Positions 15,001 to 18,000 of a stretch of 64,000 nucleotides of DNA are shown one piece after another. Source of the DNA: Elusimicrobiota bacterium (lineage in GTDB: Bacteria > Elusimicrobiota > Elusimicrobia > F11). Location: positions 160,001 to 224,000 of the forward strand of contig JBGAON010000002.1 in the NCBI GenBank assembly GCA_044221725.1, given 5' to 3'. Each line of letters starts with the position of its first letter. Position 1 is the first letter of the stretch. A program made the position numbers.

Positions 15001-18000
15001 GAAACAAGTTGGAATCGATCCTTCCAAGATTCATGTGACGGCGGATCCCGTGTTTGCGCGCCCGGTCAGCGCGACACCAAAAGATCGTTACTCGGTGGGC
15101 GCGTCGGCGCTGCTCATCCCGCGATTTCCGTGCCCCGCTATCGGACGACGCCTTTTTGCGATTGCGGGGCGAATCTTGAAAGACGAAAAGAAAATTCGTG
15201 TGCGTGGACTTTTGTTTCAGCCGCAGATCGAAAAAGATTTTCTTAGGCGTTTTGATGGCGAGTCGATTCTTTCCGAACAAGATTTTTTTGGCGATCTCAC
15301 ATTGGAGGACATGGTCAACCAAATACCGCAACACGATTGGATTATTAGCGCGCGGTTCCATGGACTTGTGTTGGCCGCGTTGGCCGGTAAGCCGTTCATC
15401 GGTGTCGGAGATGCCCATAAAGTCGGACGTATTTGCGATCTTATGCGCATGCCGTTTTTGCCGTGGCACGCTTCCGAAGAGGAAATCGTCGCGGCGATCG
15501 ATCGCCTCGCGCGAAAAAACGGTGATGTGCAGCGCGCGGTGGTCGCTCAGTTGCGTTCCTCCGCGCTTCAAACAACCCTCCACGTCGGATAATCTTGTAA
15601 ACTCCGCCACGCGTGACCACACTCGAAGAGGAAATTATTATTCCGTTGCAGCGTCAAATGGCGGCACAATCTCAACCGCGGCCCGCAAAGCCCACGTTCT
15701 GGAACATTTTTTTGTCGATCTCTTTCGGGTTTTTGTTCGGCGTGGTCGTTGGCGGCTTGTTTGTTCTTCGACAAAATTTTCTTGATTCGTGGCGGCAGTC
15801 CGTTGAAAAATTCCAGTGGCTTGTTCTTGCCCAGGGTGATCCGGTCGCTATTGATGAGGTGGGTCGCTATTTAAAAAAGTTGGATGGTGTGTCCGACGTT
15901 CAATTTCTTTCTCCCGAAGCAATGTTGGACCTTGCCAAAGCCGATTCCACGTTGGCCGCCGACCTTTCGTTAATTGAAGGCAATCCGTTTCCGGCCAGCT
16001 GGAGAGTGCATTGGGCTCCGGATCAATTTCGGAACGACCGCCTTCAGCAGGTGCTCGAAGAGGTTCGCGTGTTTCCTGGTGTTGTGGACGTTTCGTCCGA
16101 CCCCGCCGCGTTCGAGCGTGTTCAATATTTTGAAGGTTACGCACGGCGAGCGAAGATGTTTTTCCTGCTTTTTGTGTCCAGTTTTTTGCTTTTTGCGGCC
16201 GCTGGTTTGGGGCGATTTCTGTTTTCGAAAAAATCAAATTTTCAGTCGCGCCTTTTCTTTTTTTTGAGTCTTATCGGTGTTGGTAGCGCGTCGGCCGGTG
16301 CCGCGCTTATTTATTATTTGTGGTGATCAAAGTTCGTTCGCTGTTGCTTGTCTGCTGCGTTGTTGTTCCTGCCTGGTCTCAAGATCCAAAAGAAATAACA
16401 CACAAGAGCCGTGACCTCGAAAAAGTGAAAGCCGAGTTAAATCAAAAGAAAGAGGAAAGCGAGCGCCTTAAAAAAGAAGCTCAAGAGTTAAACCAGGCGG
16501 TCATCGATAGCGAAAGCAAAATCAAGAATGTCGAAACGTCTCTTCTGTACACGAAACAGAAAAACTGGGAAGTCGACCAGCAAGTCGCAACCACAAAGAA
16601 TTTGCACGACAAGCTCGCCAATACCGTCGTCCAAGACCGCGCAAATTTCCAATCCTCCGTAAAAACCTATTACGTGGCGTGGGCGCTCACGTCTCCGGAC
16701 ACCGATGCGGCGGTGCTTAAACGTCAAATTCTGCACGGGCAAGCACGCCAACTGCGCTCGAAATTGGGAGAAAAAGAAGTCGCTCATCGCAATCTGCAAA
16801 ATCTGGTCGACACGCAGCAGGTCATACGCGGCGAAGTTCGAAAACAAGAAGGCAAATTGAATTCCATCAAAGCGGGCGTCCAGGACAAGGAGCGCCTAAT
16901 TAATAAGAAGAAGACGCGCCAGGAAATGCTCGAAGCGGAAATGAAGGAGTTGCAACAAACGGCCGAGGAATTGGCCTCTCTTATCGATGTTTTGCGCACA
17001 AAAGCCAAAGACGAGGCGGAATCGCAGAAAGAGGCGCGCCGGCAGAAGCAGCTGACCGGTCAATCGCCGATTCTCGCGCATTCGCTGCCCTGGCCGTTTC
17101 CAGGGAAAGTTACCACGCGTTTTGGTCGCCAATTGAACCCAAAGTCGGGAACGATGTTTGTTTCGAACGGCGTTGTGATTGTCGCCGACGAGTCTCAGCC
17201 CGTGTTGGCTGTGGCCGACGGAAAAGTTTTGTACGCGGGTGAATTTATGAGTTACGGCCCAATGGCGGTCGTCGAACACCCGGGCGATTGGTACACGGTT
17301 TACGGCCAAATGTCCAGCTGGAACGTCGAAAAAGGCCAGGACGTTAAGAAAGGCGAAAAAGTGGGCTCGACACGGCCGCGGGCCGGCGGCGGATACGAAT
17401 CTTATTTCGAATTGCGTTTTTACGGGAAGTCGACCGATCCAATTCCGTGGTTGGCGAAATCCGAATAGCGTCTTCGCGATGAAAAGACTTGCCGTTTTAA
17501 AATCGGGATGATAAGTAGATGGGAATAAATTAAAGGAGCGCCCCACATGATCAACAGGTCCAAGTTTCATGCGCACAAACGAGTCGCCATGTCGATTTTG
17601 TTTTCTCTTTCGCTGGCCGGTTCTGCTTTCGCTGTCAAAAAGCCGGCGGCTCCTCCTCCGACGCAGCAACAGCAAGTTGATCGAACGTTTGAGCAAATTA
17701 AACTCTTGGTTGACGTGTATCAGCAGGTGGTGCAGAACTACGTTGATGAAGTCGATGCGCAAAATTTAATTTATGGTGCCGCGGCGGGGATGGTTGCAAC
17801 GCTTGACCCGTTTAGCCAGTTTATGGTTCCCGAAGCGCGCGAGGAAATGCAAACGGTCACCGAAGGTCAATTCGGTGGATTGGGAATTCGGATCATGATG
17901 AAAGACGGTTGGCTCACCGTTATAACGCCACTGCCGGATACGCCGGCGTACCGTGCGGGTATTCTTCCGGAAGATAAAATCATTTCGATCGACGACCAGT

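Follow-up and report, generated by a model that had tools for sequence, protein, structure and literature searches.

Bacteria of the phylum Elusimicrobiota appear, from comparison of their sequences, to keep an FtsEX-EnvC module from which both the ATPase FtsE and the place where FtsE docks on FtsX are missing. FtsEX-EnvC is the standard model for the way in which ATP spent in the cytoplasm activates the periplasmic amidases that cut the cell wall. What ATP does in it is viewed differently in the models for E. coli, Pseudomonas and Vibrio. The locus described here lies in a stretch of 64,000 nucleotides from an Elusimicrobiota genome (contig JBGAON010000002.1, positions 160,001 to 224,000), which we call the window. 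The Elusimicrobiota FtsX-like protein is termed FtsX*; in the window it has 237 residues.

The ftsX*-envC locus

Close homologues of the window proteins carry the NCBI label Elusimicrobiota. The genome is 93.9% complete and contains a single match to FtsX_ECD, together with ftsA, ftsZ, ftsW and ftsI, three amidases and three M23 proteins other than EnvC. Searches of this genome with E. coli ftsL and ftsQ as single-sequence queries gave no match, and promoter and terminator scans stayed at chance level.

Table 1. Genes and protein features of the ftsX*-envC locus (positions count from the first nucleotide of the window)
Feature	Position	Strand	Remarks
DUF5693 membrane protein gene	13047..14561	+	accompanies the csaB-like gene
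csaB-like polysaccharide pyruvyl transferase gene	14492..15592	+	neighbour of ftsX* in only part of the phylum
ftsX*	15613..16326	+	237 aa; TM1, periplasmic domain with X-lobe, TM2, 7-residue loop, TM3; without coupling helix and TM4
FtsX* periplasmic Porter/X-lobe domain	15814..16098	+	approximately residues 68-162
FtsX* short TM2-TM3 cytoplasmic loop	16225..16245	+	residues 205-211; site of the FtsE-docking coupling helix in canonical FtsX
envC	16320..17468	+	382 aa; signal-peptide-like N-terminus, long coiled-coil hairpin, restraining-arm residues, degenerate LytM/M23 domain
ctpA-like S41 carboxy-terminal protease gene	17547..18854	+	435 aa; usual 3' neighbour of envC in the phylum
gene for a protein with N-terminal membrane helix	18851..19228	+	125 aa; 3' of ctpA; no family match
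tsaD	19269..20315	+	often closes the gene run in the phylum

The initial annotation had placed a 237-residue FtsX with its extracellular domain directly 5' of an EnvC-like M23 protein and CtpA, and both the open reading frames and the PF18075 score agree with this. The start codon of ftsX* is GTG, with ATG at the same position in same-genus relatives. Only 20 bp separate it from the stop codon of the csaB-like gene (15592), which leaves no space for ftsE, and the start of envC overlaps the stop of ftsX*. The order csaB-like/ftsX/envC that had been reported earlier is constant in its second half: ftsX is followed by envC across the phylum, whereas the gene 5' of ftsX varies and may be csaB-like, glgA-like, an alkaline phosphatase gene or hypothetical.

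FtsX* and its TM2-TM3 segment

The extracellular domain FtsX_ECD (PF18075) scores 31.7 bits on the window FtsX* (cut-off 23.5), and PF02687, the C-terminal FtsX domain, has no match there. In the phylum, PF18075 matches 42 of 43 FtsX* sequences and PF02687 none of the 43, although the latter matches all ten reference FtsX proteins, nine of them above the cut-off. An AlphaFold model built from a 43-row alignment (pLDDT 91.9) consists of TM1, a domain spanning residues 68-162, TM2, a loop of seven residues and TM3. When this model was submitted to Foldseek, all 14 matches listed at E <= 0.001 (16 were counted) were FtsX chains.

The best preserved part of FtsX* is the periplasmic domain, with a conservation of 0.37 as compared to 0.19 for the loop and 0.12 for the N-terminus. 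In canonical E. coli FtsX, the X-lobe is described as the part that binds EnvC (PMC7668044). The positions equivalent to its residues F152, F158, L162 and L170 are hydrophobic in 61, 61, 58 and 62 of 62 FtsX*, respectively (one row with unknown residues was left out of the alignment). The stretch before TM1 is down to 2-10 residues in many members. Three transmembrane helices are found in the window protein, four by alignment in most relatives, and two in one genome (G015), where TM3 and TM4 are gone; nearly all members keep three or four. The earlier description of a reduced membrane part is thus valid for the window genus, since TM4 is absent from the window protein and from both complete same-genus relatives. 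It does not extend to the phylum, where most members have four helices and the common loss is that of the cytoplasmic coupling segment.

This segment forms the coupling helix between TM2 and TM3, which is reported to be the main FtsE contact of canonical FtsX (PMC11139282, PMC7468199). Each of the ten references has 37 residues here, against 16-25 in 61 of 62 Elusimicrobiota FtsX*; the exception (G135) has a loop of 47 residues without the coupling motif. A profile of the motif gave 42-66 bits for nine of ten references when these were left out in turn (5.4 for the tenth, from Azospirillum), and at most 1.6 for 43 FtsX* locus proteins and 150 database matches. We conclude from these alignments that the FtsE docking segment has, as far as sequence can tell, been deleted from FtsX* across the phylum. 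Most phylum genomes are incomplete assemblies, and the evidence from the docking site is unaffected by genome completeness.

EnvC

By family, sequence and fold, the 382-residue window protein is an M23/EnvC protein, and its best sequence matches in the PDB are full-length EnvCs. Its N-terminus resembles a signal peptide, judged by hydropathy only. In the model, the mature chain has helices at 3-103 and 109-226, followed by a LytM fold. The first-motif columns of the LytM domain have no His or Asp among their commonest residues, and the positions that we take to be those of the zinc ligands have lost them. The residues typical of the dead LytM domain (Y350, G351, Y366, Y401 and E403) are kept in 57-58 of 58 EnvCs, with Tyr in the Y401 column in all 58. 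The Elusimicrobiota EnvC is therefore catalytically dead, to judge from its residues. The restraining-arm positions L236 and I240, which are described as important in EnvC (PMC12505981), are each hydrophobic in 57 of 58 sequences. The EnvC model runs as an extended helix through the hinge and fits poorly to the bent solved forms. We give this no weight, because any EnvC may be predicted likewise and no control EnvC was modelled.

Search for FtsE

A sweep of the window genome and 300 other phylum genomes, in which nine candidates were scored per genome and matches were listed at E <= 1e-55, found none of the 301 above the cut-off of the FtsE family TIGR02673 (265 bits); the best match reached 224 bits. 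In the window genome, where all 59 candidates were scored, the best FtsE score was 207 bits, and each of the five best matches has its own permease. Three control records gave 287-311 bits for FtsE and 216-223 bits for the best non-FtsE ATPase, on a par with the best phylum match.

The initial annotation relied on this cut-off, which by itself is not sufficient proof of absence. Six genuine FtsEs encoded directly 5' of ftsX in Fusobacteriota reach only 137-250 bits, and the LolD of the window genome itself scores 230 bits against a LolD cut-off of 308. As true FtsEs from Fusobacteriota miss the cut-off, we turned to best-family and tree tests. FtsE was the best NCBIfam family for all six decayed fusobacterial FtsEs, and for one of 125 Elusimicrobiota ATPases (L344). 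The 125 ATPases comprise 30 of 31 from the window genome (a 946-residue protein was left out) and nine of the 30 top sweep matches, 30 of 34 listed matches plus neighbours from five near-closed genomes, and all 52 listed matches from three genomes of other classes. L344 was rejected as a diverged MlaF: it lies between mlaE- and mlaD-like genes, and its tree position agrees. L346, for which FtsE is the second-best family, sits in a tungstate-type importer locus. The gene names at both loci were read from sequence and context. One reference, a Novosphingobium 'FtsE', was removed because its neighbour and its place in the tree identify it as MetN.

The trees place the ten reference and six fusobacterial FtsEs in a single clade (SH 98; 99/98) that contains none of the 67 and 33 Elusimicrobiota rows, two sets that overlap in part. 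Nine genomes had all their candidates scored; for five of them, matches were listed at E <= 1e-35 and 30 of 34 were fetched. No ABC ATPase gene was seen at any of 85 distinct ftsX* loci, 76 of which have at least 900 bp of upstream sequence. Walker A is intact in all 28 ATPases of the window genome that extend over the profile.

FtsE was thus not found in the nine fully scored genomes with the sensitive tests, nor in any of the 301 with the coarse one. In the 292 genomes that were not fully scored, an FtsE that is decayed and encoded apart from ftsX would escape, because the sweep took nine candidates per genome at E <= 1e-55. The claim that ftsE is found neither beside ftsX nor elsewhere is supported by the 85 loci, by the best-family and tree tests in nine genomes and by the deletion of the docking segment. 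A very divergent FtsE had been named as the finding that could overturn it; the two sensitive tests recover the decayed forms in six of six cases and find none in the Elusimicrobiota set.

Distribution, fusions and the amidase

EnvC is present in 292 of 301 phylum genomes, nearly always as a single copy. The first FtsX* profile gave matches in 201 of the 301 genomes and left most of family f18 undetected. Reading of the DNA 5' of envC then revealed FtsX* in every one of 24 additional loci for which upstream sequence existed, nine of them from f18 and including genomes of 0.5 and 0.6 Mb. The earlier concern that FtsX might be rare outside the F11 lineage of the window genome can thus be set aside. 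At the 85 distinct loci, envC is adjacent to ftsX* in 78, fused to it in four and cut off by the contig end in three.

FtsX*-EnvC fusions occur in all six genomes of family f9 and in a further genome (G016); among the 150 best database clusters, 13 contain them. A fast tree requires at least two origins. Before the EnvC part, the fusions keep a segment that resembles a signal peptide, with small residues at its end, and therefore they may be split after export. Apparent fusions in family f14 were rejected, since the frames are long and overlap, and ftsX* and envC are separate genes in all three cases.

Of the three amidases of the window genome, one (G000:C3:299488-300831) carries the blocking insertion known from E. 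coli AmiA. Relatives of this amidase are found in 290 of 301 genomes, with the insertion in all 30 that were aligned, and the EnvC and amidase genes are unlinked. In family f3 (four genomes), FtsX* and EnvC are both absent from all four, the amidase is missing from three and weak in one, and FtsZ and MurG-like genes are kept. The joint absence of FtsX*, EnvC and amidase fits a single pathway, and probably goes back to a single event.

Comparison with Fusobacteriota

An ftsX-envC pair without adjacent ftsE has already been published for Fusobacterium nucleatum, where deletion of either gene leads to filaments (Wu et al. 2018, PMC5915739). As reported there, FtsX co-precipitates EnvC, an amidase co-purifies, and FtsX and EnvC have many uncharacterised partners in common. 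An ABC ATPase that came down with FtsX was suggested as a possible stand-in for FtsE, and in the alignment given there 13 reference rows have the coupling motif, which the two fusobacterial rows lack. That study made no genome-wide test for FtsE, and no comment on the motif was found in its text.

No FtsE above the cut-off was found in 101 Fusobacteriota genomes (26 candidates scored in each), nor in two complete genomes; FtsX_ECD passes its cut-off in 83 of the 101. An ftsE gene lies directly 5' of ftsX in six of 37 loci that were read, a count that includes duplicates and one locus with only 163 bp upstream. These FtsEs score 250, 219, 177, 145, 140 and 137 bits on TIGR02673, and the coupling-motif scores of the FtsX proteins at the six loci are 34.8, 23.9, 17.2, 10.9, 10.9 and 1.6, with at most 3.9 for the other 31 loci. 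The damage to the six ATPases is graded: what we take to be the signature and the D-loop are altered in two, the presumed catalytic Glu and His are gone in one, and the presumed Walker A motif is broken in three. The search for FtsE elsewhere in Fusobacteriota covered the five top ATPases of two genomes. We also searched for plasmids encoding fusobacterial FtsX and found none.

F. nucleatum resembles Elusimicrobiota in the adjacency of ftsX and envC, in having no ftsE beside them, in the presence of FtsX_ECD and in the absence of PF02687 and of the coupling motif. It differs in the FtsX loop, which is diverged and near full length in F. nucleatum and deleted in Elusimicrobiota, and some Fusobacteriota differ further in having a decayed ftsE still 5' of ftsX. 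The decayed FtsE intermediates of Fusobacteriota are new here. They form a decay series in a phylum that has a genetically tractable member, and they serve as a warning that genuine FtsEs are lost when the family cut-off is applied.

Mechanism and alternatives

Since both the motor and its docking place are apparently lost, the ATP-driven switch of other bacteria probably runs without ATP in Elusimicrobiota, and we hold the ATP independence of FtsX*-EnvC to be quite likely. The view of the initial annotation that the phylum keeps the amidase-activating arm without its ATPase agrees with the loss of the docking segment and with the FtsE tests; activation of an amidase by the pair is itself a deduction from sequence. 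Reports on the canonical systems diverge on the need for nucleotide. E. coli FtsX-EnvC without FtsE causes no rise in AmiB activity (PMC11139282), ATP binding is described as driving activation in Pseudomonas (PMC10214136), and V. cholerae FtsEX-EnvC is reported to activate the amidase in solution without nucleotide, with a positioning role proposed for FtsX (bioRxiv 10.1101/2023.10.06.561269).

On balance, we lean towards FtsX* as a passive anchor that places EnvC for ATP-independent activation of the amidase. Two FtsX* would clamp the coiled-coil hairpin of EnvC and keep EnvC at the inner membrane, and the LytM domain of EnvC would activate an AmiA/B/C-type amidase, leading to the splitting of septal peptidoglycan. 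The fusions and the conserved X-lobe lend indirect support to the binding of two FtsX* by EnvC. In the absence of a cytoplasmic motor, control could be spatial or come from the periplasm. One may speculate that EnvC extends, and frees the groove of its LytM domain, only where the amidase and the septal wall are within reach, partly as proposed for V. cholerae. The anchor model leaves unaccounted for how FtsX* is routed to the septum without FtsE.

The kept restraining arm of EnvC, and the inactivity of E. coli FtsX-EnvC without FtsE, imply that some releasing factor is still needed. FtsX* could therefore still be a mechanical switch, with a non-ABC partner (a divisome membrane protein, FtsA or a small protein) that moves its helices and frees EnvC. 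The division genes of the window genome, the three or four membrane helices of nearly all FtsX*, and the common partners of Fusobacterium FtsX and EnvC mentioned above are compatible with such a driver. It is nevertheless rather unlikely, as the cytoplasmic parts of FtsX* are the least conserved, the part before TM1 is often minimal, TM4 is absent from the window genus and TM3-4 from G015, and no conserved neighbour gene fits the role.

Alternatively, the pair may no longer be mainly an amidase activator, and EnvC may be a tethered scaffold, for example for CtpA or for other M23 enzymes. The position of ctpA 3' of envC in most loci would suit this role, as would the presence of further M23 proteins and amidases in the window genome and the lack of linkage between EnvC and amidase genes. 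However, in some genomes (L098, L100, L182) ctpA is not next to envC, the dead-LytM residues match those of EnvC, and the amidase with the blocking helix has a distribution as wide as that of EnvC, with no match or a weak one where EnvC is lacking. We consider the scaffold role improbable.

The initial annotation also raised the possibility of a shared ABC ATPase. LolD- or MacB-type ATPases that score 180-224 bits are present in nearly every genome and dock on permeases of the same fold, and the ATPase pulled down with Fusobacterium FtsX could be a precedent. Their docking, however, uses the same coupling helix that is deleted from FtsX*, which counts against a borrowed ATPase, and each top-scoring ATPase examined has its own permease, adjoining or fused. 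Moreover, six f18 genomes (0.5-0.8 Mb; 80-85% complete) lack any ATPase match at E <= 1e-55 yet have envC, and reading of the DNA in two of the six showed ftsX*-envC. A shared ATPase that drives FtsX* in place of FtsE is thus strongly disfavoured. Least credible of all is a decayed FtsE that sits elsewhere in Elusimicrobiota genomes and was missed: such FtsEs do exist at scores that the phylum sweep would not list, but all six decayed examples lie directly 5' of ftsX, a place that is empty in 85 of 85 Elusimicrobiota loci, the sensitive tests that recognise them find none in nine fully scored genomes, and the 28 profile-covering ATPases of the window genome all have Walker A intact.

Returning to the anchor model, we are inclined to see ATP-independent FtsX-EnvC as a recurring end state of FtsEX, at which the ancestor of Elusimicrobiota arrived through deletion and Fusobacteriota separately through gradual decay. 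On this view, the main task of FtsX would be to anchor and position EnvC, with the ATPase as a regulator that can be dispensed with, and these phyla would rely on an undescribed periplasmic trigger for their septal amidases. In Fusobacteriota, ftsE would go through forms without catalytic activity as the coupling helix is worn away.

Relation to known systems

FtsX, EnvC and a self-blocked amidase are kept even in genomes of 0.5-0.6 Mb, in what appears to be a natural minimal version of the module, with neither motor nor docking site. It separates the anchoring from the mechanical role and makes the question of ATP testable. Cultured members of the phylum include Elusimicrobium minutum and Endomicrobium proavitum. 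In the open literature, mostly main texts without supplementary tables, nothing was found on this loss of FtsE in Elusimicrobiota.

The type VII ABC systems MacB and LolCDE share with FtsX the Porter-domain fold and a membrane core of four helices, as described in PMC7668044. FtsX* differs from them in having the X-lobe of FtsX, a length of about 250 instead of about 400 residues, no ATPase and no coupling helix. The 'spatial control' model for V. cholerae (bioRxiv 10.1101/2023.10.06.561269) is alike in its nucleotide-free activation in solution and in the proposed positioning of EnvC by FtsX. V. cholerae has FtsE, though, and is described as swinging EnvC in a nucleotide-dependent manner, whereas no motor was found in Elusimicrobiota.

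Also close is the FtsEX-EnvC-AmiA/AmiB system, as known from E. coli, P. aeruginosa and V. cholerae (PDB 6TPI, 8HD0, 8I6O, 8TZL). Common to both are the hydrophobic X-lobe in the periplasmic domain of FtsX, the coiled-coil hairpin, restraining-arm residues and dead LytM domain of EnvC, and an amidase with blocking helix in the genome. In Elusimicrobiota, by contrast, no FtsE was found, the coupling segment is about 16 residues shorter and lacks the motif, the stretch before TM1 is often nearly absent, and ftsX is joined directly or fused to envC. By its sequences, the Elusimicrobiota module thus resembles FtsX-EnvC and fails two defining features of FtsEX, the cognate FtsE, whose gene as a rule lies directly 5' of ftsX, and the coupling helix with PF02687. 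The phylum-wide FtsX-EnvC, apparently without motor and docking site, is real and a new form of a known system.

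Degenerate FtsE and variant FtsX* proteins

In Fusobacteriota, the comparison phylum, ftsE lies directly 5' of ftsX at six loci (Table). The ATPase motifs of the six encoded FtsEs are lost in a graded manner, parallel to the erosion of the coupling motif, the FtsE-docking TM2-TM3 segment, in FtsX. Judged by sequence, these FtsEs with damaged motifs are candidate dead-ATPase intermediates. Among the Elusimicrobiota ATPases, L344 obtained its top family score as FtsE, a false alarm: it is a diverged MlaF-like protein, with altered Walker A and signature motifs, and is flanked by mlaE- and mlaD-like genes.

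FtsX* is fused to EnvC in proteins of 578-670 aa (L033, L082, L112, L113, L314-L316; P0040, P0041, P0047 and others), which have at least two origins and retain an internal signal-peptide-like segment. At L035 (genome G015), FtsX* comprises just 186 aa and stops after TM2, with envC directly 3'. At three loci, each in a single genome, ftsX*, envC or ctpA is split into two ORFs, which may be due to sequencing errors.

No match to FtsX* or EnvC was found in the family f3 genomes G013, G023, G030 and G036, and the blocking-helix amidase, the presumed target of EnvC, had no match in three of these four. FtsZ and MurG-like genes were found in these genomes. Giant open frames are also present in the family. 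In the genome of the window, a small amidase (L158) lacks the blocking helix.

Coordinates and loci of the features discussed
Feature	Location	Remarks
ftsE-ftsX, Fusobacteriota	L251, L265, L272, L278, L284, L291	genomes G377, G356, G407, G408, G369, G389
MlaF-like ATPase, L344	G046:C9:244479-245108	
FtsX*, 186 aa	L035:1348-1908	
Two-ORF ftsX*, envC or ctpA	L078, L104, L105	genomes G298, G234, G146
Giant open frame, 17755 aa	near G023:C37 29677-31404	f3; glycosyltransferase-like match
Giant open frame, 13760 aa	near G023:C15 35043-36770	f3; glycosyltransferase-like match
Giant open frame, 10571 aa	near G030:C42 12593-13078	f3; glycosyltransferase-like match
Small amidase, L158	G000:C3:821182-821838	head-on at dcw gene cluster end; murG ends 821205
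DUF5693 and csaB-like pyruvyl transferase genes	window 13047-15592	between glgA-like gene and ftsX*
Divergent polysaccharide deacetylase (PF04748)	L099:128-1234	example
Short membrane-anchored protein	window 18851-19228	3' of ctpA

Gene neighbourhood

The DUF5693 and csaB-like pair occupies the same place 5' of ftsX* in many families, of the window's class and of others, and is not there in the f7, f13, f14 and f18 loci read. The glgA-like label was read off the sequence, without a family scan.

In some families, a divergent polysaccharide deacetylase is encoded 3' of ctpA. In the window and in f18, this place is taken by the short membrane-anchored protein, which may be a remnant. The deacetylase 3' of ctpA in some Elusimicrobiota families can be likened to yibQ, which lies 3' of envC in E. 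coli.
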